This document shows positions 3,899 through 50,485 of a stretch of 64,000 nt of DNA, one piece after another. The notes below the pieces were generated by a model. The model made no database searches. It saw only the letters and a list, made by a program, of their open reading frames with translations, and was not told the DNA's origin. The first letter of the stretch is position 1; each line of letters begins with the position of its first letter. Source of the stretch: Fidelibacterota bacterium (lineage in GTDB: Bacteria > Fidelibacterota > UBA2242 > JAOZSR01); NCBI GenBank assembly GCA_029939575.1, contig JAOZSR010000003.1:8981-72980 (forward strand), given 5' to 3'. Made by a program: the position numbers and the translations under genes.

Positions 3899-3913
3899 TC
3901 GGAGGGAATTTCC

Positions 3914-5221
3914 ATGAAAAGATTGTTTCCAATAATTATTTTTTTAAGTTGTATTTTGCAGGGAGAAACTAAAGTTTTTGTTCTTTGTGAAGGTAATTTT
4001 AATACTTCAACTGCTGCTCTCTGGCAGTTTGATGATTCCTTTGCTGATATTAATGGCCCTGTTTTTTGGAATACATCTGATAATCCATTGGGTGATACTG
4101 GTCAATCATTGACAATTTTTGGCAATTATCTTTATATTGTAGTTAATAACTCACATACTATTGAGATTTTGGATATATCTAATAATGATCCCGTTTTTCA
4201 TAAAACAATATTGGTACCTAATGCCTCACCAAGGGATATTTGTGTTTATGAAAATAAAGCATATATTAGTTGCTGGCTACTAAGCAGCATTTTGGAATAT
4301 GATTTAAATTCAGAAACTTTTACAGATACAATTCAAACTCCAGGCAAACCAGAAGACGTTCTGTTGTATAATGGTAAATTATATAGTTCAATTATTGAAG
4401 AATCGGGTTCCTGGGACAAAGATAACAAAGTTGTGGAAATTGATTTGGAATCTGATTCCAATGAGATAACAAATACATATGAGGTTCTGCCCGGGCCCAA
4501 TCAAATGGCGATTAATAATAATGAACTTTTTGTAACCTGTACCCATTTTAATGAAAACTGGCAAGCAATGACCGGAACCTCAAAGATTGATTTATCTTCC
4601 GGTGTCGTAACAAGTGTTTCCCATGGTACAACTAAAAATTCGGGAGCGGATATTTGTTATTACAATAATTCTATTTTTAGGACATTAGATTCTATGATTG
4701 TTGAATTAGATGATGGCTTGGAGCCATTATCTGAAAGTGCTATTTCCAATTTTGGTTCACAGAATATTTATTCTATGGCAATGAATGATGACCATATTTT
4801 TGTGGGATTGACTGATGATTTTCAGGCACCGGATGATTTGATGGTCTTGGATATGGGAGGGAATATAGTTAAACAGTATTCAGTTAGTGCTCTGCCCGGC
4901 AGTTTTGGTTTCTTTACAAATGAGAGTTTAATAAAAGAAGACCTGGCAAAATTTTCACCACATGTATTTCTCCATGATAATTATCCTAATCCTTTTAATC
5001 CGAAAACCAATATTTCATTTTCTATTCAGGAAAAATCATTTATTGAAATTAAAATATTTGATATATCAGGTCGTGAATTGGAAACCCTTGCCAGTGAAGA
5101 TTTTTTACCAGGTGTACATTTAATTCAATGGAATGGAGCAAAATATGCTTCAGGTTGTTATTTTTATCAAATAAAGTCAGAAAATTTTTCTAAATGTAAA
5201 AAAATGGTATTGCTCAAATAA
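3914..5221 (+). CDS. Beta-propeller-like surface protein with a T9SS C-terminal sorting domain, co-operonic with the BtuB-like receptor. Possibly a BtuG-like B12-capture protein.
   Basis: RBS GGAGGG 7 nt upstream of the ATG. Signal peptide. N-terminal FVLCEGNFN motif typical of YncE/BtuG-type propellers. C-terminal NYPNPFNPKTNISFSI...YFYQIKSENFSKCKKMVLLK. Confidence 0.6.
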   Translation: MKRLFPIIIFLSCILQGETKVFVLCEGNFNTSTAALWQFDDSFADINGPVFWNTSDNPLGDTGQSLTIFGNYLYIVVNNSHTIEILDISNNDPVFHKTILVPNASPRDICVYENKAYISCWLLSSILEYDLNSETFTDTIQTPGKPEDVLLYNGKLYSSIIEESGSWDKDNKVVEIDLESDSNEITNTYEVLPGPNQMAINNNELFVTCTHFNENWQAMTGTSKIDLSSGVVTSVSHGTTKNSGADICYYNNSIFRTLDSMIVELDDGLEPLSESAISNFGSQNIYSMAMNDDHIFVGLTDDFQAPDDLMVLDMGGNIVKQYSVSALPGSFGFFTNESLIKEDLAKFSPHVFLHDNYPNPFNPKTNISFSIQEKSFIEIKIFDISGRELETLASEDFLPGVHLIQWNGAKYASGCYFYQIKSENFSKCKKMVLLK

Positions 5222-5349
5222 TTTTTTTATTTTTTTAAAATCCATATTTAAAAATAATCAGGAAAATCTACTAATCAGGAGGTGGATTTTTGTATTAGTA
5301 TTTATTTTTGAATTAAAGTATGTTTGCAGGGAAAATATTTTGGAGAAAA

Positions 5350-6087
5350 ATGTTCACAAAAGAAAAAATAGTACAATTTAAAGATATTGGGAAAATAGTT
5401 CTAAAAAACCACACAAAAGCTAAAAATATCAAAATTTCTGTAGCATTCGGAAAAAATGTTCTGGTAACTGTCCCGGAAAGAGTTAGTTTTAAACAAGCAA
5501 TCCGGTTTGTCAATTCAAAAAAAGAATGGATAAAAAAATCCCTGGTGAAAATTAGAGAGCACAGGGAAAAAGGGATGATATTTACTAATAACAAGCCAAT
5601 TTGTACCAGGTTTCATAAAATGAAATTAATACCAATAGATGAAAATATAATTCATTTTTCTATTAAACCGGGAATTGTTGAATTTCGCTATCCAAATAAT
5701 ATTGATATTGCTGATAATATTATCCAGGATGGAATAAAATATACATTACGTGAAACTTATCGGATTGAAGCTAAACAAATCTTACCTGCGAAATTACAAG
5801 CCCTGGCAGTGAAATTTGGTTTTTCATACAATCGCCTTTTCATTAAAGCCCAGAAATCAGTATGGGGAAGTTGTTCAAGTAATAGGAATATCAACCTAAA
5901 TCTACAACTTATGAGACTTCCTGACGAATTAATAGATTATGTACTACTCCATGAATTGACTCATTTGAAAGTACACAAACATGGTCCGGAGTTTTGGAAT
6001 TATCTTTGTTCAATGATGCCCGATGCAAGGGATAGAAATAATAAACTTAAGCAATATAACCTCCATGATCTATTTCCAAATAATTAG
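5350..6087 (+). CDS. YgjP/DUF45-family zinc metallohydrolase (M48/WLM-like, HExxH motif)
   Basis: HELTHL motif (LLHELTHLKVHKHGPEFW). N-terminal region of YgjP type (IVQFKDIGKIVLKNHTKAKNIKISV). I prefer the internal start at 5350 (GGAG 5 nt upstream) over the ORF-track start at 5320. Confidence 0.6.
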   Translation: MFTKEKIVQFKDIGKIVLKNHTKAKNIKISVAFGKNVLVTVPERVSFKQAIRFVNSKKEWIKKSLVKIREHREKGMIFTNNKPICTRFHKMKLIPIDENIIHFSIKPGIVEFRYPNNIDIADNIIQDGIKYTLRETYRIEAKQILPAKLQALAVKFGFSYNRLFIKAQKSVWGSCSSNRNINLNLQLMRLPDELIDYVLLHELTHLKVHKHGPEFWNYLCSMMPDARDRNNKLKQYNLHDLFPNN

Positions 6088-6535
6088 TTTTGGTAATCAC
6101 TGAAACTTGAATAATATTCATTTGTTTGTATTGTGATATTCATTTTAAAACAGTTTTAATGATGTATTGCACAATTGCAATGGAAAATTGTGAATCCTAT
6201 AAAATAGCATTGACTTTGAAATCAAATCAAAAATATAGAGTAAATTTTCGCATTTTATTCTCCTTTCGGATTTTATTTTGATTATTAAAATGCTCTGAAA
6301 GTAATGATTAAAAGGAATGGAGATGTCTCACAATTTAGTTGTTCTGATTGTAATTATTACTTTTGTATAATCCGGAGAATTATATCAGTCTTGCAATTTT
6401 GCAATCTATTAAAAGCATGAAAGAAATAGGTATTTGTAATGCAATTGGTGCGGCCGGTAGTAATTTAATTGTACAATTATCTATGCATTTAAAGTAATTT
6501 TATCAAATTTTGTATAATTTTACGAATTAATTGAT

Positions 6536-7159
6536 TTAATCATTAATATTGAATTCCAGTAATACATTTTCATTGTTTATAAAACATTGATTAACTTTGC
6601 TATGAGTTTGGGTAATGAATTTTTTAAGATGAGCCAGAGAAAGTGATTGGTTTTTCTTTGCATCGTTCTGAACAGATTCTACTTTTTCAATAGTAGCTAA
6701 CACCTCATTTATGGCATTGTGACAGGCAATTAAATTGTAAATATCTTGTTCTGTTATACCTACGGCGGTTAAAGAAATCATGTGGTCAGTTACCAAATCA
6801 ATATTATATGAGATTTCTTTTTGCATTAATTTGATATCTTTTGGAATTCTGGTGTTTACATGAAATTTTTGTAATATACTTTCGTTACCGATGTATACAT
6901 CTCTTGTAGCAGAACGGATTTTTTTTAATAATACTGTGCATATTTTCAGATGATTTTTTTGGATTCTATTTACAGCAATTTTTCTATTTTTTACATTTTC
7001 GAGTAATAAGTGTTTTTGTGACAGGTCTTCTATAGATTCTTTAAAGGCGGTTATAAAAGTATCATTAGCGCCATAATTATTTAGTTCCGGTTGATATTTT
7101 TTCAAATTATCAAGCAGAAGATAAGCAGTTTGAATAGTTTTTGCAATTTTTGGTTCCAT
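6536..7159 (-). CDS. Hypothetical protein, 207 aa, no recognisable domain
   Basis: Clean ORF with AT-rich spacers >400 bp on both sides. No motif recognised. Confidence 0.45.
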   Translation of the reverse strand: MEPKIAKTIQTAYLLLDNLKKYQPELNNYGANDTFITAFKESIEDLSQKHLLLENVKNRKIAVNRIQKNHLKICTVLLKKIRSATRDVYIGNESILQKFHVNTRIPKDIKLMQKEISYNIDLVTDHMISLTAVGITEQDIYNLIACHNAINEVLATIEKVESVQNDAKKNQSLSLAHLKKFITQTHSKVNQCFINNENVLLEFNIND

Positions 7160-8060
7160 GATTGGTCCTTGTTATAGATTGTGATTAGATAAATGTTCAA
7201 GTATATTTGATAAATATCTCAGTAAAATTCTCCTTTTTCCGGGCAATGTCGAATTCCGGGATTTTTAAAATAAACATACTTTTACATATTAAAATACATA
7301 ATTTAACAAATAAGTGAGTTTAAAATCGCTATTTGTTGTGTTTTATTTCGAGGATTTTTTTAAAAACTAAAGAGTGGGAGACCCTTTATAAGTTTAAATG
7401 AGTAAAGAGTATTTAGGAAATCCACGAAATTAAACTTAATTATATGATTGAATAAAACACAAAACATATTTAAAATATAATTGATGGAATCGTAAAAAGG
7501 TTTGAATCTGTCTTTCCGTCGAAAGCCAGACACAGTCTGAGGCAGTGTAGTAATGAAGAATATCGTCGATAATTATAGGAGATTCTTTATTACTACCTCA
7601 TTCAGAATGACATCAAATTTACTTTTTACGGAATTATTATAATTTCTTCAAAAAGCATTTTTTGTGATTTTTATCACTTTTTTGTAATCAATAAATAATT
7701 AGTAATGTTTACCATTTTATTGACAAAATCAAGACTTTTTTTTACAATTGTATAGATATATTCCGATCTTCGTCCATTTATTAGTAAACATAAAAAGGAA
7801 TGTGGTTTCAAAATCACAGATATTAATTGTTTACCAACATTTTGTTTTACTACTATACTACTCTTTGGCTCAGGTTTTGCAAATTTTTGTGTTTTTGTAA
7901 AGAGGTGTGTGATGAAATGAATGAATTTCCAGACTATCCGTCATTATCAAGGTTTATTTATACAGTATTAAAAAAAGAGAAATAGGTATATATTTCCCTT
8001 TTTTGTTACCCTGATTGAGCTATTTAGATTTAACTAAAAATTACAATAGGAATTTTTTTT

Positions 8061-11000
8061 ATGAAATTATCCTTTTTAAAAGAAATATTCAGAAGCAAAT
8101 TGGGCAGATCTATTTTACTCACATTTTTTCTAATAGGTATAACGCCAATAGCAATTGTTAATACAATTAATTATCTGCATATGAGAACAATAGTTCAGAA
8201 CCAGGTTGCTGATTTACTTCAGGAATTGGCAAATAAAAGTATTATGGATATTAATTATCATTTTAATAGGTTGATATTAAACTTAAATTTGCGAGCTGAA
8301 TCGGGTGATAATGTTGAAATTTTAAAAGCTTTTACCAGGGCTTTCAAAAAAAGTAATATTAGTTTAGAGAGATTTGTTAAAAGTCCCCAATGGGCGAAAA
8401 TTTCTACAGAAAAATGTGCTGACCTGAAAGCTATTAATGAGGGAAAAGGGTATTATGATATTTTTCTGATAGATACTGAAGGTAATATCCTGTTTTCAAT
8501 TAAAAAAGAAAGTGATTTGGGTACAAATCTGTTTAATGGTAAATATTCCCAAACCAAATTTTCAAAAGCATGTAAAAAAGTGTTTAACACCGGTAAACCG
8601 GCTTATTCTGACCTGGAATTTTATGAGCCTTCAGGAAATGAGCCAGTCGGATTTGTTATTGACATTATGTATGATGATTTGGGAAACAGAATAGGTTTTA
8701 TTGCCTTTCAGATTGATATAGAACAATTAAATAACTTTGTACAATATGAAAGTGGACGTTATTCCAGTTTTGATACATACTTACTGGGGACAGATTTGAA
8801 AATGAGGTCAAATTCTCTTCTTGATTCGGTAGATAATATCTTGAAATACAAGGTATCAAATACTCTGACACAGCAATTTGAAAAGGAATTTCAAACTCAA
8901 CCTGAACAGATATTCGAAAAAACAGAAGCTCTTTTTTATAATGGAAGAAAGGGGTATAAGGTATTGGGAATTTATAGTTATCTGGAAATAACAGGAATTC
9001 CATTTATACTAATTTCCGAAATTAAAAAATCTGAGATATTTTATGATCTAAATAATATAAAGTTATTTTTTATTGCCAGTCTGGGCATGATTATAATTTT
9101 TATTTTTTTTCTTACAATTTATCAGATAAAAACAATAGTTATTCCAATTATCAAACTATCTGATTGGGCTAAGAGAGTGGCTATCGGTGATTTAACAAAG
9201 GAGAAAATTTTATCGCCTAAAAATGAAATTGGAGAAATGGCAAACAGTTTTGATATGGTAGTTGATTCTTTCTGGGCTATTTCACAGGTCTGTCAGGATA
9301 TTGCACTTGGAGATTTTAAATCAAATCTAGAAATACGTAGTGATAAAGATGATTTAAGCAGATATGTAAACCAAATGTCTGAAATGCTTCAGGATGCTAT
9401 ATTACAGGCTCACAAAATAGCCTGGGGAGATTACGACACTGATGTTAAAATACGGTCTGAGAATGACCAACTTGGTAAAGCTCTGGAGCAAATGACCATT
9501 ACTCTTAAAAATGCTTCAATAGAAACAAAATCTAAATTGGAATATCTCAATAATATTCCAACGCCATTTTTTGTGATTGATAAAGAATACAATGTTTTAT
9601 TCATAACAGAGTTCGGAGCAGATTTTATTGGGAAACCAATAGAAAAATGTGTTGAACAGAAATGTTATAATCTTTTCAATACCGGATTGTGTCATAGTGA
9701 AAAATGTCCTGCAAAGCAGGCGATGGATCAAAATTCGGTGATTATTGCTGATACTATTTCATGTCCTTTTGCAGAAAAAGTTATTTCAATCCGTTCTACT
9801 GCAGCGCCATTAAAAGATGAAAATAATAATATAATTGGGGCAATGGAATATATGATTGACACATCTGTTGAACAAAAGGTTGCGGAAATAGCAGAACGAA
9901 TTTCTCTGGGTGACCTTGATATCAATCAAAATTTACTTGGTTCGGAAAATGATCTGGACGTTGCTCTCAAAAGAATGATAGACAGGTTTAAATCTATTAC
10001 AAATGCGACAAAAAAAATTGTGGCAGGGGATTATAATTTTAAGATTAAAGAAAATAGTTACAAAGATGAACTGGCAAGATCAATTAACCAGATGGCAGAT
10101 ACTCTTAAAGAAAAAGACATTGGCATTAGAGAAACTATTTGGCTCAATGATGTTCAACTTGGATTGGCAGAAATTTTGGATGGTGTTAATAATTATGTAG
10201 ATATTTCCAGAGAGATCAGCAAATATTTGTGTAAGAAATTAGATGCTCAGGTAGGAGCTTTATATATTGTTAATGATAAAGAGATCAAACTCATGGGCTC
10301 TTATGCTTTCAATATTAGAAAACAAATTAATGATTCATTTAAGGTAGGTGAAGGATTATTGGGAGAAGTTGTTTTGGAAAAAGAAACAATTCTTTTGGAA
10401 AATGCACCGGAAGATTATTTTAAAATATCTTCCGGACTTGGTTCATCTTTGCCCAAAAACATAATTGTATCACCTTTTATATTTAATAATCAGGTATTAG
10501 GTGTTATTGAGTTGGGCTCGTTTAAAACATTTCCACCAAAAAGTATTAAACTCTTAAATATAATTTCAGAAACAGTAGCAGTTGAATTAGATCAGATAAG
10601 TAAGCAAAAAAAACTGCATGATTTATTGGAAAAAACTCAAATTCAGTCGGAAAAACTTCAATTACAGCAGGAAGAATTAAAATCCAGTAATGAAGAATTA
10701 CAATCTACCAATGAGCGTATTAAATTACAACAGGAAGAATTACGAATTTCCAATGAAGAATTAGAAGATAAAACAAGAAGTTTAGAAATTAATAAAAAAG
10801 AAGTCGAGAAAAAGAACAGGGCACTGGAGAGAGTAAGAGTTGAGTTAGAAAAAAAGGCCAAAGAACTGGAAACGTCCAGCAAATATAAATCGGAATTTTT
10901 GGCGAATATGTCACATGAATTGAGATCACCTCTAAATAGTCTTTTATTACTCGCAAAAGCACTAAGTAGAAATTCAACCGGGAATTTAACAGAAAAACAA

Positions 11001-12914
11001 AAGGAATCAGCAAGAATTATTTATAATAGTGGAAATAACCTGCTATCTTTGATTAATGAAATTCTGGATTTGTCTAAAGTCGAGTCCGGGAAAATGGAAG
11101 TATTAGTTGAAAAATTGAAATTGAAAGATATACAATACAGTATGGAATATTTTTTCAGACATCAGGCAGAAGAAAAGGGTATTGCCTTTCATATTAATAT
11201 TGATAACAGATTACCGGAAATTATTCTTACTGATAAAAAGAGGCTGGAGCAGATTATTAGGAATTTGTTATCAAATGCAATAAAATTTACTGAAAAAGGA
11301 AAAATTAGTTTTGATATCAGAAAACCTGAATACTCTACCGGTCTGTTTAATAGTAAATTAGATGTTAATAATTGTATAGAATTTTCCGTTACAGATTCAG
11401 GGGTTGGTATTCCTGAAAAGAAACAATCTATCATATTTGAAGCTTTTCAGCAAGCTGACGGATCTACATCAAGGAAATATGGTGGAACAGGACTGGGACT
11501 TTCAATTACAAAAGAATTATGCAAACTACTGGGAGGTGAAATCCATCTCAATAGTATAGAAAATAAGGGCAGTACATTTTCGGTTTTTTTACCTATAAAA
11601 TTAAAAATTGATAAAGAAGAACAAGTAAATACCGATAGCAATGGAAAACATGAAGTTATTAAGACTAAAAATAGTAAAATTAACATAAATGAAGAAGAGC
11701 AAGTGCTTGAAGATGATCGAAATAATTTATCTGATGATGATAAAATTATTCTGATAATTGAAGATGATTTGAATTTTGCTAAAATAGTATTAGAGATGTG
11801 TAATGAAAAGGGATTTAAATGTATCCATGCTGCCACAGGTGAAGGTGGATTGTTCCTGGCTGGAAAATATTCCTTTGATGCGATTATCCTTGATATCAGG
11901 CTTCCCGGCGTTCAAGGTGCGCAGGTATTAGAAATATTAAAAGATAATTTGAAAACCAGGCATATTCCGGTAATGGTGATGTCTGCGCATGATAAACCGG
12001 AAAAATTGATAAAGAAGGGTGCTTGTGGGTTTTTATCAAAACCAGTATCTGAGGAAAAATTATTTAAAGTATTTGATGAAATTAAAACAAGAATCTCAAA
12101 AAATATAAAAGATTTGCTAATAATAGAAAATGATAAAAATCTGCAAAAAGGAATATGTAATTTGCTTGATTTGCCTCATGTCAAAATTACAGTAACTGAA
12201 AAGGGAAAGAAGGGACTGGATTTAATAAAAACAAAATCTTTTGATTGTGTTATTCTGGATTTAGGTTTGCCTGATATTTCCGGGTATGATATTCTGAAAA
12301 CTGTTAAAAAAGATAAAGATTTACAAGACTTACCAGTTATTATTTATACTGGCCAGGAATTATCAAAAAAGGAGCAATTAAAACTCTATAAATATGCAGA
12401 TTCAGTAATTCAGAAAAAGCAGAATAGTGATGAAAGGCTTCTTGATGAAACAACTCTCTTTTTACATTCGGTTTATGAAGAAATGAATATAAAAAATCGT
12501 CATAAAATTGCAAGTTTGCACGATGCTGATAGTTTTATGAAAGGAAAGAAAGTTCTTATAGTCGATGATGATATGCGCAATCTTTTTGCCTTGACAGAGG
12601 AGTTGGAACTAAAAGGCTTGGAAGTAATCAAAGCCACAAATGGGCAGGAAGCCCTTGATGTTTTAAAAGAAAATCCAAATATTGATATTGTTTTGATGGA
12701 TATTATGATGCCGGTAATGGACGGTTTTGAAGCAATAAAAAAAATCAGGGAAGAACTAAAGTATTCATCGTTACCAATTTTGGCTGTAACTGCCAAGGCT
12801 ATGGAAGAAGATAGACAAAAATGTATTGATATCGGGGCAAATGATTTTCTAAGTAAACCATTAGAAATTGAATTATTGTTTTCTATGATGCGTGTTTGGA
12901 TAAAAAAGGATTAA
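8061..12914 (+). CDS. Giant hybrid sensor histidine kinase with a periplasmic sensor, multiple HAMP domains, a Cys-rich PAS-like segment, GAF, coiled coil, HisKA, HATPase and three receiver domains
   Basis: Two TM segments flank a ~300-aa extracytoplasmic domain. There are at least five HAMP-like repeats (IGDLTKEK..., ALGDFKSNLEIRSDKDDL..., AWGDYDTDVKIRSENDQL..., SLGDLDINQNLLGSENDL..., VAGDYNFKIKENSYKDEL...). GAF domain (QVGALYIVNDKEIKLMGSYAF). Coiled coil QQEELKSSNEELQSTNERIKLQQEELRISNEELEDK. HisKA H-box (FLANMSHELRSPLN). HATPase G-box (GGTGLGLSITKELCKLLGGEI). REC1 (ILIIEDD...ILDIRLPG), REC2 (LLIIENDKN...ILDLGLPD) and REC3 (VLIVDDD...LMDIMMPVMDG...SKPL). Confidence 0.85.
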   Translation: MKLSFLKEIFRSKLGRSILLTFFLIGITPIAIVNTINYLHMRTIVQNQVADLLQELANKSIMDINYHFNRLILNLNLRAESGDNVEILKAFTRAFKKSNISLERFVKSPQWAKISTEKCADLKAINEGKGYYDIFLIDTEGNILFSIKKESDLGTNLFNGKYSQTKFSKACKKVFNTGKPAYSDLEFYEPSGNEPVGFVIDIMYDDLGNRIGFIAFQIDIEQLNNFVQYESGRYSSFDTYLLGTDLKMRSNSLLDSVDNILKYKVSNTLTQQFEKEFQTQPEQIFEKTEALFYNGRKGYKVLGIYSYLEITGIPFILISEIKKSEIFYDLNNIKLFFIASLGMIIIFIFFLTIYQIKTIVIPIIKLSDWAKRVAIGDLTKEKILSPKNEIGEMANSFDMVVDSFWAISQVCQDIALGDFKSNLEIRSDKDDLSRYVNQMSEMLQDAILQAHKIAWGDYDTDVKIRSENDQLGKALEQMTITLKNASIETKSKLEYLNNIPTPFFVIDKEYNVLFITEFGADFIGKPIEKCVEQKCYNLFNTGLCHSEKCPAKQAMDQNSVIIADTISCPFAEKVISIRSTAAPLKDENNNIIGAMEYMIDTSVEQKVAEIAERISLGDLDINQNLLGSENDLDVALKRMIDRFKSITNATKKIVAGDYNFKIKENSYKDELARSINQMADTLKEKDIGIRETIWLNDVQLGLAEILDGVNNYVDISREISKYLCKKLDAQVGALYIVNDKEIKLMGSYAFNIRKQINDSFKVGEGLLGEVVLEKETILLENAPEDYFKISSGLGSSLPKNIIVSPFIFNNQVLGVIELGSFKTFPPKSIKLLNIISETVAVELDQISKQKKLHDLLEKTQIQSEKLQLQQEELKSSNEELQSTNERIKLQQEELRISNEELEDKTRSLEINKKEVEKKNRALERVRVELEKKAKELETSSKYKSEFLANMSHELRSPLNSLLLLAKALSRNSTGNLTEKQKESARIIYNSGNNLLSLINEILDLSKVESGKMEVLVEKLKLKDIQYSMEYFFRHQAEEKGIAFHINIDNRLPEIILTDKKRLEQIIRNLLSNAIKFTEKGKISFDIRKPEYSTGLFNSKLDVNNCIEFSVTDSGVGIPEKKQSIIFEAFQQADGSTSRKYGGTGLGLSITKELCKLLGGEIHLNSIENKGSTFSVFLPIKLKIDKEEQVNTDSNGKHEVIKTKNSKININEEEQVLEDDRNNLSDDDKIILIIEDDLNFAKIVLEMCNEKGFKCIHAATGEGGLFLAGKYSFDAIILDIRLPGVQGAQVLEILKDNLKTRHIPVMVMSAHDKPEKLIKKGACGFLSKPVSEEKLFKVFDEIKTRISKNIKDLLIIENDKNLQKGICNLLDLPHVKITVTEKGKKGLDLIKTKSFDCVILDLGLPDISGYDILKTVKKDKDLQDLPVIIYTGQELSKKEQLKLYKYADSVIQKKQNSDERLLDETTLFLHSVYEEMNIKNRHKIASLHDADSFMKGKKVLIVDDDMRNLFALTEELELKGLEVIKATNGQEALDVLKENPNIDIVLMDIMMPVMDGFEAIKKIREELKYSSLPILAVTAKAMEEDRQKCIDIGANDFLSKPLEIELLFSMMRVWIKKD

Positions 12915-12918
12915 TAAA

Positions 12919-13578
12919 ATGGATAAAGAACAGGAAAAAAAGCCGGAAATTCTAATAGTTGATGATAGGGAAGAAAATTTATTTTCCCTGGAAATATTGT
13001 TGGAACAGTTTGATGTTGATTTAGTACGGGCAATGTCAGGACAGGAGGCTGTGAGTAAATGTTTGCGTAAGAATTTTGCACTTATTTTACTTGACGTGCA
13101 AATGCCTGGAATGGATGGATTTACTGCGGCTGAATATATTAAGAAAGACAAGATGAATGAAAATACACCAATTTTGTTTTTATCCGCAATATATACTGAA
13201 GAAGCCTATAAAATCAAAGGTGTTAAATCAGGTGGGATTGATTTTCTCACTAAACCATTGAATGAAGATATTTTACTTGGCAAAATAAGCCTGTTTCTAA
13301 AAATATATAATCAGCAAAAAGCACTTGAAATGAAGAATGTTGAATTAAAGGAGGCATTAGAGAATATTAAAACACTTAAGGGAATTGTCCCAATATGTTC
13401 ATCGTGTAAAAAAATTAGGAACGATGACGGATACTGGGAGAGAGTAGAGGCCTATATTAGTGAACATTCAGAAGCGGTCTTTTCTCATGGGATTTGTCCT
13501 GATTGTATAGAAAAATTATATCCCGATTTAGTCAAAAAAAATCCCAGTTTAATTAAACCTCAAATCAAAAAGGATTAA
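12919..13578 (+). CDS. Response regulator: receiver domain plus a C-terminal Cys4 (CxxC...CxxC) zinc-ribbon-like domain
   Basis: REC motifs (ILIVDDREENL, LILLDVQMPGMDG, TKPL). C-terminal PICSSCKKIRNDDGYWERVEAYISEHSEAVFSHGICPDC. Starts 5 nt after the kinase stop. Confidence 0.8.
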   Translation: MDKEQEKKPEILIVDDREENLFSLEILLEQFDVDLVRAMSGQEAVSKCLRKNFALILLDVQMPGMDGFTAAEYIKKDKMNENTPILFLSAIYTEEAYKIKGVKSGGIDFLTKPLNEDILLGKISLFLKIYNQQKALEMKNVELKEALENIKTLKGIVPICSSCKKIRNDDGYWERVEAYISEHSEAVFSHGICPDCIEKLYPDLVKKNPSLIKPQIKKD

Positions 13579-13579
13579 C

Positions 13580-14425
13580 TTGGATAATTACGGAAATGAA
13601 ATTGAAGATATTGAAGTTAATTTAGTAATTGATGCCATATTTCAAAGTTATGGCTATGATTTTAAAAATTATTTCAGAGCCTCTTTTACAAGAAGATTGA
13701 GAAACTTTAAGGTTTTGAATAATTTTAATCATATTAGTGATATTATCCCTTTTATTTTGTATGATTCCGGCAATTTTAATAAATTGTTGAATGCTATTTC
13801 CGTTACTGTGACTGAAATGTTTAGAGATCCCTTTATATATAAATATATCAGGGAAAAAGTAATACCTTACTTAAATACTTATCCCACGATTAATATTTGG
13901 GTTGCCGGTTGTGCTACCGGAGAAGAGGCTTATTCCATTGCTATCCTTTTAAAAGAAGAAAACATTCTTGATAAAGTAAATATTTACGCTACTGATATTA
14001 ATACTAATTCTCTTGATATCGCTAAAGAGGGAGTGTATTCCAGTGAAGAAATGAAATTAAGTACCAGAAATTATCAACGGAGCGGAGCGAATAGGTCATT
14101 TTCAGAATATTACCATACAAATTATGGTAATTCAATACTAAACAAGGAATTAAGGGAGAAAATTATTTTTAATCAGCATAACCTGGTATCTGATGCTTCT
14201 TTTAATGAAATGCATTTTATAATCTGCAGAAATGTTTTAATCTACTTTAATAAGAAATTACAAAACAGGGTGATAGGACTATTTAATGATAGTTTGATTC
14301 ATAATGGATTTCTATGTCTTGGAACTAAAGAGGATATAAGATATTCAGATTACGCAGAGAAATTTATTGTGAAAGGTAGAGAAGAAAGAATATTTCAAAA
14401 AAAGCAACAAGATGTCGAATTATAA
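13580..14425 (+). CDS. cheR: CheR-type protein-glutamate O-methyltransferase
   Basis: SAM-binding CheR core (INIWVAGCATGEEAYSIAILLKE...IYATDINTNSLDIAKEGVY...NVLIYFNKKLQNRVIGLF). Confidence 0.8.
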   Translation: MDNYGNEIEDIEVNLVIDAIFQSYGYDFKNYFRASFTRRLRNFKVLNNFNHISDIIPFILYDSGNFNKLLNAISVTVTEMFRDPFIYKYIREKVIPYLNTYPTINIWVAGCATGEEAYSIAILLKEENILDKVNIYATDINTNSLDIAKEGVYSSEEMKLSTRNYQRSGANRSFSEYYHTNYGNSILNKELREKIIFNQHNLVSDASFNEMHFIICRNVLIYFNKKLQNRVIGLFNDSLIHNGFLCLGTKEDIRYSDYAEKFIVKGREERIFQKKQQDVEL

Positions 14426-14990
14426 GGCCATAGTAATCGGAGCATCTCTTGGTGGATTTGATGTAATTCTAAAAATTATTGCCCCTTTACCAAAGAATTT
14501 CTCAATACCAATAGTTATTGTCCAGCATTTATCACCAGATCATATTATTGGGGATAAATACAATTTATTAAATACCAGATTTAAGTTAAATGCGAAAGAA
14601 GCGGAGTTGTTTGAAATATTAAAAGCCGGAAATGTATATTTCGCCCCAGCGGGATATCATTTATTAATTGAAAAAAACAGGTCTTTTTCTTTGAATGTTG
14701 ACGAAAAAGTAATGTATAGCCGTCCGGCAATAGATGTGCTTTTTGAAACTGCTGCTGAAGCCTTTGGAAATTCATTGATTGGAATAATTCTAACCGGAGC
14801 AAATAGGGATGGTACTAATGGAATAATCAAAATAAAGGAATTTGGTGGTCTGACAATTGCCCAGGATCCCAAAACCGCTTTAAGTCCTGAAATGGTCGAA
14901 TCTGCAATTGATAGTGGAAAAATTGATCATATATTAACACCAACAGAAATATATAATTTTATTATGCAATTTGCTGATGCAAAAAATTAA
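14412..14990 (+). CDS. cheB: CheB-type protein-glutamate methylesterase, catalytic domain only
   Basis: KAIVIGASLGGFDVILKII, PIVIVQHLSPD, RPAIDVLFETAAEAFGNSLIGIILTGANRDGTNGIIKIKEFGGLTIAQDP. Overlaps the cheR stop by 14 nt. Confidence 0.8.
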   Translation: MSNYKAIVIGASLGGFDVILKIIAPLPKNFSIPIVIVQHLSPDHIIGDKYNLLNTRFKLNAKEAELFEILKAGNVYFAPAGYHLLIEKNRSFSLNVDEKVMYSRPAIDVLFETAAEAFGNSLIGIILTGANRDGTNGIIKIKEFGGLTIAQDPKTALSPEMVESAIDSGKIDHILTPTEIYNFIMQFADAKN

Positions 14991-15019
14991 TCACCGGACT
15001 GGTTTGTTTGCACAACATA

Positions 15020-18000
15020 CTATTTTTTGAGATTTTGTAGCCGTTTTTTTGCATCAATTATTTGGATGGAACTTTTTGGGGCTTTTTTCCATAAATCAAG
15101 GAATTTTTCATAATGTCGGATGGCCTTTGAGTTTTGGTCATTTTTTTCATAGACCTTTCCAATTTCATAATGTAGAGTTGGATGAATTAGTCTGAGATCA
15201 TTCCGATCAGGATTTAGTGATACTATTTTTTCATATTCAGTAAGCGCTAATTCAATATCATCGTTTTCGAGATAGGCCAGGGCTAAGACATTTTTATCGG
15301 GAAAATTATAGACTATAAATTCGTTCGCCCTAGTAGGTGCCTGTATTTTAATTTTATTTTTTGACTGATAAAATTTGATAGCTGTTTTTGCAGAGCCAAG
15401 ATCAATCATGCGCTGGGCAAAGATATTATAATAAAAATAGAGAGCCCATTCTTTACCTGTTCGTAAATTAAAGATTAAGGAAGAATTATTTTGAGCTTTT
15501 TGCAAAATCTCTTCCAGATTAAAATTTTCAACATTGGTTAACATATTAAAAACAATATAGAAAACCTTAGTATAAGCACTTTTATCATTATTAATATAAT
15601 TCTCAATTTTGCTGAAATAAAAGTCACTTTTTTCCATATTTCCAATATCCTGATAAAACATAAATAATTGAAAATTTGATAATACAATTCTATATGTATT
15701 ATTGAGTTCGGTAAATAATTCTATCGATTTTTCTACATCCTGTACCGATTCTTCATATTTCCCAATCCAATAGTTAATAAATCCTCTTAACTGGTAGCGC
15801 TCGGCTTTGTGACCTGTAGTTTTTCCTAAAGTAATAGACAGGTTAATCCATTCAATTGATTTATCATATTCTTCTTGCAGGGCATACATATAGCCAATTT
15901 TATATTCTGAAAATCCTGGTGCCAGCCTGGAAGCGTCTTTGTATTTTTCGATCGCATCTTCGATTCGACCCATTGTATAAAAAATATCAGCCATTGTATC
16001 GTGGGGATTTGCGTCATTTGGATAAAGTTTCATATATTTTTTTGTAAATTCCAGCGCCTTATCATAGTCCAGGATTTCAGGCCTGAGATAATAATAAATC
16101 AACCTATTAATTACAGGTCCAAAATCAGGATCAAGTTCGAGTGCTTTATTTAATTCCTCAATCGCTCTTTTATCTCCAATATTTAAATAGGTTACACCAA
16201 GATTATAATGTATAATTTTATCATTGGGATATTCTTCTACACACTGTTCCAAAAGTTGTAAACTTGCTTTTAAATCATTTTTAATAACAGCATTGTAAGC
16301 GGCATCAATTAGTAGTTTTTCTTTTCCAACAAGGTTTTTTGAAAATTTCTTGGATTTTTCAATTGATGATATTTGTTTTTTTACATTGCCGATTGCACCA
16401 TAAATTTGACTCAGAAATAAATGTGCAGAGGCAAAAGTAGAATCGAGTTCGATAGCTTTTTCCATGTAATTTAGGGCTTCATCATAATAGGCCAGGTACA
16501 TACTTTCCTGCCCTTTAATATAATTTTCATAAGCCTCAATTGATTTTGTTGTCATGTTGGATATTGTTATCTGCTCTTCCTGCTCTCTTGTGATTCCGAT
16601 TTTTTGAACAACTTTTTCAGTAAGTTGGTCAACCATTGTAAAAAGATCGTCGATTTTGTTTCCATCTACCTGCTCGGAACTGATATTCCTTCCGGTTGCA
16701 ACGTCAGATAATTGAGCATTTATCCTGATGCGGTTTCCTATTTCAATAATACTACCCAACATCATTATTTTTACATTGGCTTCTTTTGCGACTTCTGTTG
16801 CCACTTCACGGTCGATTAGTTTGACCTTATCCTTACCTGTGTTTTTTAGAATATCGAATAAACGTTGACTGCTTACAACTTCCAATTCACTAAAACGTGA
16901 TAGGTTTGTGATAAGCATATCAACCAGAATTTTTTCCAAATCTTTTCTATCTGTTCGATTCTCAAAATACATGACGGCGATGGATCTCTCTGAAAGGTCT
17001 ATCTGGGGGGAAGCCTTTTTTTCAAATAGGTTGGAAAGTGTCAGGGTCAGGGCAATTATTACCAACACAAGTACTGATGCCGTGATAATTAATTTTTTTC
17101 GTTTTTGAGGAGTTAAAATAATTGTAGTTGAATCATGAAGAGTTTTATCGTCCTGTTTTTTTTCTGGTTGCATATTTATTACGGAAGATGAAAGATTTTG
17201 TGTTTTGGAAATTTTTTCCGAATCTCTTTTTAATCTTTTAATTTCTGCTAAAAAATCTTCCATTCGTTGGTATCGGTATTCACATTCCTTATCTAATGAC
17301 CGCTTGATAATGCTGGAAAATTCCATTGGTAAATCAGGAATAAAATCCTGAAGTGATTCCGGTTCATTGTTAATAATAGAATAAAGTAATGCCTGAGGAT
17401 AGTCGCCACGAAAAGGTAATGAACCGACGAGCATTTCATAATATAATATACCAAGTGACCAAATGTCGGAGCGGTGATCAACTTTTCCGCCGGTAGCTTG
17501 TTCGGGAGACATATATGCCACAGTTCCCATTGTAGAACCATCGGTAGTCATATCAATACCAGCAAATTTGGCTAATCCAAAATCTAATATTTTTACTACA
17601 CCGTCTTCGGTTATTATGATATTCCCCGGTTTTATATCCCGATGGATTATACCTTTTGAATGGGCTTTGTTTAATCCTTCTGCAATTTGAGTGGAAATAT
17701 CCAGGGTTTCCTTAATATCGAGATGACCGTTTTTAATTTTTTCTTTTAGAGTCTGACCTTGGTAATAGGCCATGGCGATATATAATTCCCCATTATCAGT
17801 TTTATTAATTTCGTAAATTGTGCAAATATTCGGATGATCCAGGGCGGATGCTGTTTTGGCTTCCTGAATAAAACGTTTTTCTTTTTCTTTGTCCTCCAGG
17901 AATTTTGATGGTAAAAATTTTAAAGCAACTGTCCGACCTAATTTTAAATCTACAGCTTTATAGACAACTCCCATCCCACCTTCGCCAAGGTGTTCAGTAA

Positions 18001-18031
18001 TTTTATAATGAGATATCTTTTTTCCGATCAT
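15020..18031 (-). CDS. Hanks-type Ser/Thr protein kinase with one TM segment and a long extracytoplasmic TPR-repeat domain
   Basis: GEGGMGVVYKA...ALK, HRDIKPGNIII, DFGLA, SPE. Hydrophobic segment LIITASVLVLVIIALTLTL. Many TPR-like AYxxxG repeats toward the C-terminus. Confidence 0.85.
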   Translation of the reverse strand: MIGKKISHYKITEHLGEGGMGVVYKAVDLKLGRTVALKFLPSKFLEDKEKEKRFIQEAKTASALDHPNICTIYEINKTDNGELYIAMAYYQGQTLKEKIKNGHLDIKETLDISTQIAEGLNKAHSKGIIHRDIKPGNIIITEDGVVKILDFGLAKFAGIDMTTDGSTMGTVAYMSPEQATGGKVDHRSDIWSLGILYYEMLVGSLPFRGDYPQALLYSIINNEPESLQDFIPDLPMEFSSIIKRSLDKECEYRYQRMEDFLAEIKRLKRDSEKISKTQNLSSSVINMQPEKKQDDKTLHDSTTIILTPQKRKKLIITASVLVLVIIALTLTLSNLFEKKASPQIDLSERSIAVMYFENRTDRKDLEKILVDMLITNLSRFSELEVVSSQRLFDILKNTGKDKVKLIDREVATEVAKEANVKIMMLGSIIEIGNRIRINAQLSDVATGRNISSEQVDGNKIDDLFTMVDQLTEKVVQKIGITREQEEQITISNMTTKSIEAYENYIKGQESMYLAYYDEALNYMEKAIELDSTFASAHLFLSQIYGAIGNVKKQISSIEKSKKFSKNLVGKEKLLIDAAYNAVIKNDLKASLQLLEQCVEEYPNDKIIHYNLGVTYLNIGDKRAIEELNKALELDPDFGPVINRLIYYYLRPEILDYDKALEFTKKYMKLYPNDANPHDTMADIFYTMGRIEDAIEKYKDASRLAPGFSEYKIGYMYALQEEYDKSIEWINLSITLGKTTGHKAERYQLRGFINYWIGKYEESVQDVEKSIELFTELNNTYRIVLSNFQLFMFYQDIGNMEKSDFYFSKIENYINNDKSAYTKVFYIVFNMLTNVENFNLEEILQKAQNNSSLIFNLRTGKEWALYFYYNIFAQRMIDLGSAKTAIKFYQSKNKIKIQAPTRANEFIVYNFPDKNVLALAYLENDDIELALTEYEKIVSLNPDRNDLRLIHPTLHYEIGKVYEKNDQNSKAIRHYEKFLDLWKKAPKSSIQIIDAKKRLQNLKK

Positions 18032-18162
18032 TTTTTTTAAATCTAATTAATTAAAATTCAAAGTTGACTGCCAAAAGTCAGTTATCAAATGGATTTAAAC
18101 CTAATTATTAACTCAGATACTAAAACACAGATTAATAAATTATTTTTTACATTTTAAATCAT

Positions 18163-19461
18163 TTAAGATTTTAGTTGATTCCTTTTAACAACCAATAGGG
18201 TCATATCATCTTGCTGGAAATCATTGCTTGTAAAGTTTTTGACTTCTTTTATTATTTTGTCAATTATTTCCTGTGAGGTTTTATTACTATATTTTTTTAT
18301 AACTTCTTCTAACCGCCATTCATCAAAATCCTCTTCTTCCGGATTCACAGCCTCAGTAATACCATCAGAATATATAACCAAAATATCACCCGGCCGCATA
18401 CTGATAATTTCTTCTTCATAATTAGAATGTTCCAGGAAACCGAGGACAGTACCACCAACATCAAGTTTATTTATTTTCCCATTATCCGATAAATACATTG
18501 GTGGTGTATGACCGGCGATTGAATATGTAAGTTTGTTGGTTTTTGTATTTAAAACAGCATAAAATAGGGTGGCAAATTTTTGAATATCTGTGCTGTGGAA
18601 TAGAAATTTGTTGGATCTCATCAGACATTCAGAACATGATAATGTAGAAAACGCCTGACCCCGTAATGTTGCCTGTAGATTAGCCATTAATAATGATGCT
18701 GGAATGCCTTTGCCTGAAATATCTCCCAGGCAAAAGGCCAGATTGTCTTCGTCAATGGAAATAAAATCGTAATAGTCACCACCAACTTCTTTGGCCGGTT
18801 CACTAAATCCTGCAATGTCGTAACCGTCGATTTTGGGATGTTCTTTAGGGAGTAGTTGGTTTTGAATTTCGTGAGCTACCAGCAGATCTTCTTCGATTGA
18901 CCTTAATTCCTGTTCTTTTTTGTATAATCGGGTACTCTCAATTACCTGTGCAGATTGAGCTGCAATTATTGAGAGTATTCTCTGGTCTGATTGTGTGAAG
19001 CCATTTGATGTGCGTTTATTGAATAAATTCAGACAGCCAATCATATTGCCTTGTACATATAATGGTACGCTTAATAAGGATTTGATAGAAAAATCCATTT
19101 TTCCGATAATTTTAAAACGTGTGTCTGACTGAAAATCATTTACTAAAAGAGCTTTTTTATTCTGCAACATCCAGCCGGAAAGTTGAACACCAAAATGATA
19201 GGGAACTTTTGATTCGGACTTATCCATTTTTCTGATCATTGTCTGAAAGGGTTTGTCCGAAGATTCGTCATCCAAAAGCATGATTACGCCTTGTTGTACA
19301 TTTAAATTCTTAACGCATTTATGAACAATTAAATCCACTACCTGGTCCAATTCCCAGACGCCACTAATAGCAGTTGCGATATCATTTAGAATAGAAAGTT
19401 CCTGAACCGCTTCCCGCAGTCGCTGAACTTCCAACTTATCTCTGTTCATTTCCATTGACAA
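18163..19461 (-). CDS. GAF-domain PP2C-type serine phosphatase (RsbU/SpoIIE-like)
   Basis: N-terminal GAF. PPM core GGDYYDFISIDEDNLAFCLGDISGKGIPASLLMANL...SDGITEA...DDMTLLVV. Confidence 0.8.
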   Translation of the reverse strand: MSMEMNRDKLEVQRLREAVQELSILNDIATAISGVWELDQVVDLIVHKCVKNLNVQQGVIMLLDDESSDKPFQTMIRKMDKSESKVPYHFGVQLSGWMLQNKKALLVNDFQSDTRFKIIGKMDFSIKSLLSVPLYVQGNMIGCLNLFNKRTSNGFTQSDQRILSIIAAQSAQVIESTRLYKKEQELRSIEEDLLVAHEIQNQLLPKEHPKIDGYDIAGFSEPAKEVGGDYYDFISIDEDNLAFCLGDISGKGIPASLLMANLQATLRGQAFSTLSCSECLMRSNKFLFHSTDIQKFATLFYAVLNTKTNKLTYSIAGHTPPMYLSDNGKINKLDVGGTVLGFLEHSNYEEEIISMRPGDILVIYSDGITEAVNPEEEDFDEWRLEEVIKKYSNKTSQEIIDKIIKEVKNFTSNDFQQDDMTLLVVKRNQLKS

Positions 19462-19473
19462 ACAGGTTTCACT

Positions 19474-19827
19474 TTATTCAGCTGTTTTGGTATCTGTAGC
19501 AAAAGCGTCAATTGCTTCCTGAACAGTATCATAGGTAGCAAAGACCTCTCTTAATTTCATTTGGTAAATCAGACTGTAAATTTTTCGTGATGGTCTGGCA
19601 ATTTTCAAATCACCGTTCACACTATTCAAGGAAGTATAAGAAGCCATTAGTGCACCCAGACCGGTACTGCTGAACCATTTAATTTTACCAATATCCACGA
19701 TGATTTTTTTCTTACCCTGCTCAATTAAATTTTTAATATAAGGATGAATATCAATTTTTACATTAATCATTTGTCCCGATAAAATTAATATTGTTACATC
19801 GCCCTCTTGTTGTTCTTCAATTTTCAT
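19474..19827 (-). CDS. STAS-domain anti-sigma-factor antagonist (SpoIIAA/RsbV-like)
   Basis: 117 aa. VTILILSGQM...IIVDIGKIKWFSSTGLGAL (the phospho-accepting Ser lies in the SSTG region). Confidence 0.75.
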   Translation of the reverse strand: MKIEEQQEGDVTILILSGQMINVKIDIHPYIKNLIEQGKKKIIVDIGKIKWFSSTGLGALMASYTSLNSVNGDLKIARPSRKIYSLIYQMKLREVFATYDTVQEAIDAFATDTKTAE

Positions 19828-20147
19828 TGTTTTCTCCGGTTAATTTTTTAGCAGACTGAACTTTTTAAGATGGAAATCAAATTGAGCTCAGAATGCAATG
19901 ATCTACTTATTAAAAAAAAATTACTATAGACACAGATATGTATTTTTTTTATCTGCATCGATTGGTTTGTAAAAGTAAATATTATGTCATTAAGGGTATA
20001 AATAAAGAATCCAGTTGTTAATAATAAAATTCTTAGTACTATTTATTCTTCAGAATGACAGTTTTTGGTTTTTTTCAAGACTTTCTATGTTAATTTCAAA
20101 GATCTGTTAATGAATAATATTTTTATTATTTCATGTAATTTATGTAA

Positions 20148-20573
20148 CTATTTATTATTTTCAGTACAAAATTTTCTTATCAGGGTTACTATATTTTTCC
20201 CATTTATTCTTTCATATACAACATCATCTACAACAGTTTTTATTAACGGAATACCTAGTTTTCCAGCACTATATTGCAAAAAATCCTGATGAGTATTAAA
20301 AGCATTAATATTTTCAAAATCAATCAGGTCACCTTTATTAATAATTTTAGCAACGATTTCTTCATCTTCAAAATAAAGAATTAATTCAGAATTGTTTTCA
20401 CCTGGTTCATCTTTACTGTATTGGATAGCGTTTGTATAGGCTTCGCCTATGGCAACGGAGTAAACATCGGCCTCTTCCTCTTTCATTCCGTGCTGAATAC
20501 ATAAAAAATGGACGAAATCCCAGGTTCTTTCCAATAATGATTCGTCTCCTTTTATTCTAACCGAATAACCCAT
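20148..20573 (-). CDS. RsbW/SpoIIAB-like anti-sigma regulatory Ser kinase (HATPase_c)
   Basis: 141 aa. AIGEAYTNAIQYS N-box-like motif. Size and position next to the STAS gene. Confidence 0.6.
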   Translation of the reverse strand: MGYSVRIKGDESLLERTWDFVHFLCIQHGMKEEEADVYSVAIGEAYTNAIQYSKDEPGENNSELILYFEDEEIVAKIINKGDLIDFENINAFNTHQDFLQYSAGKLGIPLIKTVVDDVVYERINGKNIVTLIRKFCTENNK

Positions 20574-20751
20574 TCAGTTTTATACCTTCCTGCATTTAAA
20601 TAAGAATTGTTATATATCAAAAAAATTTACTATAAAAAACAAATAAATAAAAGCCATTCTTAACTTATCAGATATTATTTATAAATTTTATTCCTATGAA
20701 CATAATATCCCGGGATTAATGGTTTTAACTATCAAATACATAATAATTAGC

Positions 20752-50171: not shown

Positions 50172-50485
50172 ATTTATCCTTCTATTTATACAACAAAAAT
50201 ACAATCATTTTTTCTTGTTGCCTAAACTATTTTTTAACATCTTACATCTGCCCTAATTGTGCCCAATAAAAGAAATATCGGGAAGTAATAAATCGAATTG
50301 TCGCATAATGTAGAAAACCCAGTATATTATATTTTAAAATTACAATATTAAGAAATTTCTACTGTTGTAATAAACTAAATATATCAATTAAAACAAACAA
50401 AAACTATATTTCTATTTGCTCCTGTTAGTATGTTGTTGGTGATGATATAGAAATATTTCATTATAGTTAATTAATTGATGAACAA

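Follow-up and report, generated by a model that had tools for sequence, protein, structure and literature searches.

In Bacillus cereus, the CheR-type enzyme RsbM methylates the signalling helix of the hybrid histidine kinase RsbK (domain order CHASE3-HAMP-GAF-S-helix-HK-CA-REC), and the modification combines with an inhibitory C-terminal receiver (REC) domain to hold sigma-B off (PMC4574943). RsbM is an orphan methyltransferase with no paired esterase, and 127 RsbK-like kinases have been counted in 10 phyla (PMC4574943). In Pseudomonas putida, the cfcABCDE cluster encodes the hybrid kinase CfcA (PP_3761), on which the diguanylate cyclase CfcR depends, a CheR/CheB pair (CfcB and CfcC) reported as non-chemotactic, and CfcD, which carries a receiver domain (PMC4951495). 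We found no methylation data for CfcA in the literature searched. For RsbK, the methylation was reportedly mapped by Chen et al. in 2012. Here, we describe a four-gene operon at positions 8061-14990 of a 64,000-nucleotide stretch of a Fidelibacterota contig (JAOZSR010000003.1; the whole stretch is called the window below), encoding a hybrid histidine kinase, a receiver protein and enzymes of the CheR and CheB families. It is very probably a module of the RsbK/RsbM type (or CfcA/CfcB/CfcC type), in which CheR and CheB tune the kinase through its signalling helix. Operons of this type are already described, and the window contributes a further member. The first-pass annotation of this DNA, made from the sequence alone, had proposed that the kinase itself is the substrate of CheR and CheB; the idea is well supported and essentially correct, yet the mechanism had already been published.

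The four genes are co-directional and closely spaced, as had been noted before. Coordinates and junctions match our open reading frame (ORF) calls, and independent gene calls on three public contigs that carry this locus gave the same four ORFs:

8061-12914, + strand, hybrid kinase gene, 1617 aa
12919-13578, + strand, receiver protein gene, 219 aa, after a 4-nt gap from the kinase gene
13580-14425, + strand, CheR gene, 281 aa, TTG start, after a 1-nt gap from the receiver gene
14412-14990, + strand, CheB gene, 192 aa, overlapping the CheR gene by 14 nt

The statement that no methyl-accepting chemotaxis protein (MCP), CheA or CheW is encoded in the 64 kb also holds, since none of 38 window ORFs with a length of 100 aa or more matched MCPsignal, CheW, Hpt or H-kinase_dim in Pfam scans. 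An MCP-signal domain search of the kinase, a check named in the first-pass annotation, is covered by these scans and gave no MCPsignal match. As a secondary check, Escherichia coli Tsr and CheW queries were run with phmmer against all window ORFs of at least 60 aa, and no match was found.

The relationship to the B. cereus system is best seen through locus L079 of Neobacillus drentensis (3347-10813, + strand), which holds a complete rsbV-rsbW-sigB-rsbY(REC-PP2C)-dps-rsbK-rsbM set. In an ungapped alignment of 269 residues, its RsbM is 44% identical to the window CheR (E 1e-89), and its RsbK-type kinase is colinear with that of the window, starting at the last HAMP and continuing through the receiver (BLASTP, E 1e-105, 30% identity over 741 aa). 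The C-terminal receiver of the L079 kinase and the third receiver of the window kinase are 54% identical (68/125). The CheR identity, the colinearity of the kinases and the likeness of their receivers make the window operon a member of the RsbK/RsbM family, and its kinase, judged by sequence, is a membrane hybrid histidine kinase of the RsbK/CfcA type. As in B. cereus, a kinase with the order HAMP-GAF-signalling helix-HisKA-HATPase-REC is followed by a CheR-type methyltransferase. In contrast to B. cereus, the window kinase has a dCache_1 sensor with extra HAMP and PAS domains in place of CHASE3 and three receivers rather than one; its operon adds a CheB esterase, encodes a REC-Cys4 regulator where B. 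cereus has REC-PP2C (RsbY), and has no sigma factor gene. Pfam finds no CHASE3 in the window kinase, only dCache_1 at the sensor position, and sensors vary within the family (CHASE3 in L079, 4HB_MCP_1 in the Cytobacillus locus L084, dCache_1 in the window), so that CHASE3 looks like a variable rather than a defining feature. The helix repeats of both L079 and L084 read SEELQ[AT]Q, lacking the Asn of the main family motif described below, and neither locus has a CheB gene.

The Pseudomonas loci of our sample (L021-L044) share with the window the trio of kinase, CheR and receiver-less CheB as well as the helix motif. They differ in gene order: in the window, the regulator, a REC-Cys4 protein, lies between the kinase and CheR, whereas in the Pseudomonas loci CheB is followed by a gene for a REC-kinase. 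A further difference is that CfcA is reported to have a CHASE3/GAF sensor (PMC6849547) and signals to CfcR.

Along the window kinase, the parts follow each other as a transmembrane segment, dCache_1, a second transmembrane segment, HAMP units, PAS, HAMP-like units, GAF, the signalling helix, HisKA, HATPase_c and three receivers. Pfam places dCache_1 at residues 45-317, PAS_4 at 496-602, GAF at 714-843, HisKA at 943-1010 and HATPase_c at 1058-1179, and also matches three Response_reg domains and HAMP. By hydropathy, hydrophobic segments at about residues 14-37 and 330-365 lie on both sides of dCache_1, which indicates that the kinase is a membrane-bound sensor and binds its ligand outside the cytoplasm. 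The earlier description of the kinase had overlooked both dCache_1 and PAS. Its term 'poly-HAMP' fits two stretches that are significant in Pfam, whereas two further HAMP-like units (residues 417-439 and 656-678) come from a pattern search only, for a total of about four units of HAMP type. The features on which the argument below depends are:

8193-9011, + strand, extracytoplasmic dCache_1 sensor domain, residues 45-317 (Pfam E 7.4e-13)
10593-10895, + strand, signalling helix, residues 845-945, a heptad coiled coil running from GAF into the DHp helix
10671-10676, + strand, candidate methyl-accepting pair E871/E872 in heptad EELKSSN, which fits EExx[AS][ST]; position kept in the family motif
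10692-10697, + strand, candidate methyl-accepting pair E878/E879 in heptad EELQSTN, the repeat unit of CheB/CheR fusion proteins
10734-10739, + strand, candidate methyl-accepting pair E892/E893 in heptad EELRISN, second motif copy
10755-10760, + strand, candidate methyl-accepting pair E899/E900 in heptad EELEDKT
10914-10916, + strand, codon of the phospho-accepting His952 in the H-box, an H-box common to the CheR-linked kinases
12552-12887, + strand, third, C-terminal receiver domain, residues 1498-1609 (Pfam), counterpart of the inhibitory RsbK receiver

The signalling helix has an unbroken heptad pattern, with Leu, Ile or Val at each seventh position from L852 to L936. The other core position is occupied by Asn, Ser or Gln, and the Glu pairs fall at exposed b/c positions. 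The peptide that had first drawn attention to it, QQEELKSSNEELQSTNERIKLQQEELRISNEELEDK, was quoted exactly (residues 869-904, nt 10665-10772). Family alignment yields the motif QQEEL[RK]xxNEELEE within a longer consensus, ...LLEETQRQSEELQxQQEEL[RK]xxNEELEEQ...(14-28 residues)...QQxELxQTNExLEE..., in which insertions and deletions between or after the two motif copies amount to 7, 14 or 28 residues. The position of the motif relative to the phosphorylation site is strictly kept. In all 165 of 165 motif copies from 113 distinct kinases, the distance from the motif Leu to the phospho-accepting His equals 2 modulo 7 (44, 51, 58, 65, 72, 79, 86, 93 or 114 residues), and copies are spaced from each other by 14, 21 or 28. 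The four EEL heptads of the window obey the same rule, with Leu-to-His distances of 79, 72, 58 and 51. AlphaFold2 modelling of residues 700-1190 gives a single helix over 826-970 (block-mean pLDDT about 83-97), and the segment is thus modelled as one continuous coiled coil that joins GAF to the DHp helix. Searched alone, the helix matches no Pfam or NCBIfam family and has no significant match among PDB sequences.

Comparison with chemoreceptors shows both likeness and difference. The methylation consensus of MCPs, including its half-site Glu-Glu-x-x-Ala/Ser-Ser/Thr, is well established. The window shares with the MCP-CheR-CheB system the two enzyme families and an acidic coiled coil in which Glu/Gln pairs recur at heptad intervals, and its heptads agree with this half-site. 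The resemblance of these pentads to MCP sites, put forward in the first-pass annotation, is therefore real at two of the four heptads (EELKSSN and EELQSTN), where the half-site EExx[AS][ST] is present; the full 10-residue MCP consensus was tried and does not fit, and across the family the small residues of the half-site vary, whereas QQEEL and NEEL are conserved. The window otherwise differs from the chemotaxis system in having no MCPsignal, CheA or CheW and a CheB without the phospho-regulated receiver. It also differs in topology, a single helix leading into HisKA being predicted where an MCP forms the hairpin of an antiparallel four-helix bundle. An MCP-like hairpin or four-helix bundle of the two motif copies was considered and rejected, because the first copy keeps its phase to the His despite deletions; spacings and indels are multiples of 7, and AlphaFold2 gives one helix.

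The co-occurrence check named in the first-pass annotation was run in both directions. An alignment of 25 CheR homologues retrieved 80 CheR-anchored loci from about 13 phyla, as judged by record titles. They include Pseudomonas putida, Pseudomonas fluorescens, Stutzerimonas stutzeri, Sphingomonas, Leptospira interrogans and Nostoc, and also members of Chryseobacterium, Flavobacterium, Gemmatimonadota, Acidobacteriota, Planctomycetota, Verrucomicrobiota and Bacillaceae. CheB lies at most 1.5 kb from CheR in 71/80 of these loci and a histidine kinase at most 3 kb away in 74/80. A hybrid kinase bearing the motif upstream of its H-box is found within 3 kb in 64/80, and in most of the other 16 the contig ends next to CheR. 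The motif is all but confined to these kinases, being present in 1/77 other kinases and in 2/6238 other ORFs of the same loci. For the reverse test, metagenome contigs were scanned with an alignment of the coiled coil without the H-box, which gave 80 motif-anchored loci, 49 of them with enough flanking sequence. CheR was found within 3 kb of the motif-bearing kinase in 47/49 informative loci, accompanied by CheB in 43. In L110, one of the two exceptions, CheR and CheB are located 5-6 kb away, beyond a second such kinase. Since the linkage holds from CheR as well as from the motif, helix motif and CheR/CheB pair predict each other, and the four-gene arrangement is far beyond chance. Two other approaches were uninformative. 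When a collection of 5.8 billion proteins was searched with the coiled coil and the H-box together, the best 120 matches were all fragments of at most 223 aa, which hold no architecture information, and the motif used as a text string retrieved nothing relevant from the literature searched.

Both enzymes look active, as their S-adenosylmethionine (SAM)-binding motifs and their Ser, His and Asp motif residues are kept. CheR matches the Pfam CheR family (2.1e-41), with a weak CheR_N match (22.6 bits, cutoff 27). Its SAM-binding motifs WVAGCATGEEAYS and CRNVLIYF align to the solved CheR structures 5FTW and 1BC5, the best structural alignment being that to 5FTW, a CheR of the Bacillus subtilis type. 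In its N-terminal domain, S35, R38 and R39 are invariant among 25 homologues. Thousands of stand-alone homologues exist at 45-60% identity, and those examined share the gene context. This CheR is predicted to be a protein-glutamate methyltransferase of the RsbM/CfcB type. In CheB, the CheB_methylest domain covers residues 7-183 (Pfam 2.2e-49) and a receiver domain is absent. The Ser of GASLGG, the His of VQHL and the Asp of GANRDG, which we take to be the Ser-His-Asp catalytic triad of CheB, align with the motif residues of 3SFT and 6YMZ. Since 123 of 124 cluster-linked CheB ORFs likewise have no receiver (median N-terminal extension, 9 residues), the receiver-less form is a trait of the family. 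The window CheB is a catalytic-domain-only variant and a predicted methylesterase/deamidase.

A second kind of association between these enzymes and acidic heptads comes from proteins in which both are joined. At the metagenome locus L133 (2312-5194, + strand), a 960-aa protein combines CheB_methylest, CheR_N, CheR and PAS_10/PAS domains; its coiled coil carries EELKSTNEELQSTNEEFQSTNEEL, and EEMQTSQEELKSTNEELQSTNEEFQSTNEELTSSKEEMQSLNEELQTVNAEL stands directly before the PAS_10 domain. Seven consecutive heptads of the form EE[LM]x[ST][ST][N/Q/K] are present in 120/120 of the fusion homologues listed (P0241-P0360), which belong to Bacteroidota. Their sources label them 'CheB/CheR fusion protein', the label 'two-component system CheB/CheR fusion protein' being that of JGI. 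With 65-76% identity overall, they represent roughly one independent lineage. The fusion places both enzymes and the same heptads in one polypeptide, and the repeats are nearly identical to EELKSSNEELQSTNE of the window. The two arrangements differ in that the enzymes are fused and the heptads precede PAS_10/PAS in the former, whereas in the window the enzymes are separate and the heptads precede HisKA. The fusion heptads come closer to the methylation half-site of chemoreceptors than the kinase motif, which suggests that the fusion proteins may be self-methylating sensors.

How such a module could operate can be outlined from two sources: the gene content, the linkage between motif and enzymes in both directions, the fixed heptad phase and the homology to the rsbK-rsbM locus found here, and the published observations that RsbM methylates the signalling helix of RsbK and that methylation and the C-terminal receiver repress that kinase. 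An extracytoplasmic ligand would be sensed through dCache_1 of the membrane kinase, and the signal would travel via HAMP, PAS and GAF into the parallel coiled coil of about 100 residues, continuous with the phospho-His helix. The co-transcribed CheR would move methyl groups from SAM onto the exposed candidate Glu pairs E871/872, E878/879, E892/893 and E899/900 at b/c positions. Methylation would neutralize charge and may stabilize a helix that is marginal by its composition, with Leu at d and Asn or Gln at a. The balance between kinase and phosphatase activity would then shift, in whichever direction methylation acts, as would the docking of the inhibitory C-terminal receiver, as in RsbK. The receiver-less CheB would strip the methyl groups and render the modification reversible, and it may also deamidate the conserved Gln pairs. 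Output would proceed by phosphotransfer to the adjacent REC-Cys4 regulator.

Several other explanations of the CheR/CheB genes have to be set against tuning of the kinase through its helix. The two proteins could be ordinary chemotaxis enzymes acting on MCPs encoded elsewhere in the genome, with the adjacency of the kinase being incidental or co-regulatory. Our view is indeed confined to 64 kb of a longer contig, the longest on record measuring 87,767 bp, and both proteins match the standard CheR and CheB families of Pfam. However, this CheR clade, at 44-60% identity across phyla, stays beside motif-bearing hybrid kinases, whereas MCP genes occur in 2/80 CheR-anchored and 0/80 motif-anchored loci and CheW in 0/160 related loci. 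The window CheR scores 95 bits against the NCBIfam chemotaxis CheR equivalog, far below the cutoff of 435, the window CheB has no receiver domain, the part by which CheA exerts control over CheB, and the P. putida homologues are reported as non-chemotactic (PMC4951495). We consider a role on distant MCPs extremely improbable. It is also conceivable that the enzymes modify another partner, be it the receivers of the kinase, the REC-Cys4 regulator or, in other members, the downstream REC-kinase. Receiver-containing proteins are present in all these clusters, and Salmonella CheR is reported to methylate the response regulator PhoP (PMC8546571). Yet the regulator varies (REC-Cys4 in the window, REC-kinase in most loci, REC-PP2C in Bacillota) and the helix motif is the constant partner; the CheB/CheR fusions have the heptads and no receiver domain, and the mapped B. 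cereus target is the S-helix (PMC4574943). Such a partner thus appears very unlikely, and for the receivers of the kinase, which the first-pass annotation had named as an alternative substrate, we found no specific support.

The motif might instead be a docking or tethering site for CheR and CheB, or a purely structural signature that has co-evolved with them, itself unmodified. The best-conserved residues of the motif (Leu, Asn and the Gln-Gln pair) belong in part to the coiled-coil core, and MCPs are reported to bind CheR by a separate tether, a C-terminal pentapeptide (PMC7390727). Nevertheless, the exposed EE pairs are conserved as much as the core residues in the family alignments, both enzymes have kept their catalytic residues, and the published result for RsbK places methylation on the signalling helix (PMC4574943). 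We regard an unmodified motif as highly improbable. The coiled coil of the kinase as the substrate of CheR and CheB, which the first-pass annotation had favoured, is supported by the two-way linkage, by the CheB-CheR fusions and by the RsbK/RsbM precedent (PMC4574943).

Some observations nevertheless weigh against tuning of the kinase by reversible methylation of its helix. Six CheR-anchored loci (L013, L035, L047, L050, L067 and L070) have no motif-bearing kinase near CheR. The likeness of the motif to MCP methylation sites, as read from sequence, is real but partial: the motif fits just half of the consensus, and the small residues are not conserved in the family. The CfcA-dependent phenotype of P. 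putida persists when the other cfc genes are mutated, according to an unpublished remark of the authors (PMC4951495), which implies that CheR and CheB are modulatory at most. The authors of the B. cereus study doubt that demethylation is the activating step, and no paired esterase exists there (PMC4574943); for these two reasons, a true adaptation loop remains a proposal. The description of the operon as a methylation-adapting two-component system outside chemotaxis can accordingly be kept for methylation control outside chemotaxis, whereas 'adapting' describes a putative behaviour. It is tempting to suggest that, in the larger part of the family that has CheB, the window included, CheR and the receiver-less CheB form a self-contained reversible feedback that gives the kinase adaptation or memory, that the fusion proteins modify themselves, and that the window module speaks through its Cys4 domain; we offer this extension tentatively and think it rather less likely to be right than wrong.

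Separate methylation systems with non-motility outputs are known, and Wsp, Frz and Che3 resemble the window operon in that CheR/CheB-type methylation controls outputs other than motility. They differ in that a CheA-type kinase works there with an MCP and CheW; none of the three is encoded in the window or typical of the related loci.

The regulator encoded between the kinase and CheR deserves separate mention. It consists of one Response_reg domain (Pfam), a linker helix at residues 116-156 (40 residues) and a C-terminal Cys4 module, the latter following the linker helix in an AlphaFold2 model with a mean pLDDT of 87.6:

13384-13524, + strand, Cys4 module in output position, residues 156-202, PICSSCKKIRNDDGYW...HSEAVFSHGICPDC

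The module, of about 65 aa, has the pattern P-x-C-x2-C-K-K-I-R-x-D-x-G-x-W ... H-S ... F-S-H-G-x-C-P-x-C. It is found in 22,253 cluster representatives at E <= 0.001, and in 100 sequences the P, the first C-x2-C, D-x-G and the second C-x2-C are invariant. It is always C-terminal, after PAS, REC, TPR or dCache-HAMP modules, and has no significant match in Pfam, NCBIfam or PDB sequence searches. The Cys4 module looks like a major, widespread output domain that has escaped annotation.

Other features of the kinase and of its surroundings are given here as side observations. The PAS_4 domain contains a cysteine cluster, C-x4-C-x8-C-x4-C (CVEQKCYNLFNTGLCHSEKC; residues 530-554, window positions 9648-9767, + strand), with a fifth Cys about 20 residues beyond it; the cluster may bind a metal or serve as a redox site. 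The kinase gene is preceded by 900 nt of AT-rich intergenic DNA (7160-8060), in which a sigma-70-like near-consensus site, TTGACA-17-TACAAT, is located at 7720-7748; the number of such sites is within chance expectation. Over 6000-15200, an Rfam scan found nothing above chance, and promoter and terminator scans found nothing exceeding it. Convergent with the operon, the minus strand at 15020-21537 encodes a Ser/Thr kinase-TPR protein (1003 aa), a GAF-SpoIIE phosphatase, a STAS protein, an RsbW-like HATPase_c_2 protein and a PP2C phosphatase. This partner-switching set recalls the RsbV/RsbW module downstream of B. cereus RsbK, and Pfam finds no receiver domain in its phosphatases. A general link between the clusters and partner-switch genes was considered and rejected, as such genes are located near just 6/160 related loci.

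Farther away, the gene at 21900-28604 (+ strand) encodes a Laminin_G_3 protein of 2234 aa that carries a sorting tail for type IX secretion. On the minus strand, a gene for a TdeIII-type type II restriction endonuclease stands beside an N6/N4 DNA methylase gene (47554-50204), and an unusual fusion of 726 aa joins a SurA-like/PPIase (rotamase) part to a radical SAM domain with SPASM and a C-terminal SEC-C (50793-52973). A 1142-aa ORF without a Pfam match (54638-58066, - strand) neighbours a PorV-like gene and a TonB-dependent receptor. Given its PorV-like gene and its sorting tails for type IX secretion, the host, an uncultured organism of about 32% G+C, is probably a member of the Fibrobacterota-Chlorobiota-Bacteroidota (FCB) group.

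Tuning by methylation is usually taught as a speciality of chemoreceptors. In about 13 phyla, with Pseudomonas, Leptospira interrogans, Nostoc, Chryseobacterium and Bacillaceae among their members, the loci described here tie enzymes of the CheR/CheB type to classical histidine kinases. As the mechanism itself is published, the remaining interest lies in the CheB-paired form, the site motif with its phase rule, the fusion proteins and the Cys4 output domain. The motif QQEEL[RK]xxNEELEE, its strict heptad phase to the phospho-His and the four Glu pairs provide handles for experiments. The only member studied biochemically, RsbK/RsbM of B. cereus, has no esterase, whereas the window offers a clean example with both CheR and CheB. 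If the proposed feedback were real, an ordinary two-component kinase would possess chemotaxis-like adaptation, a question that reaches beyond the esterase-less system of B. cereus.

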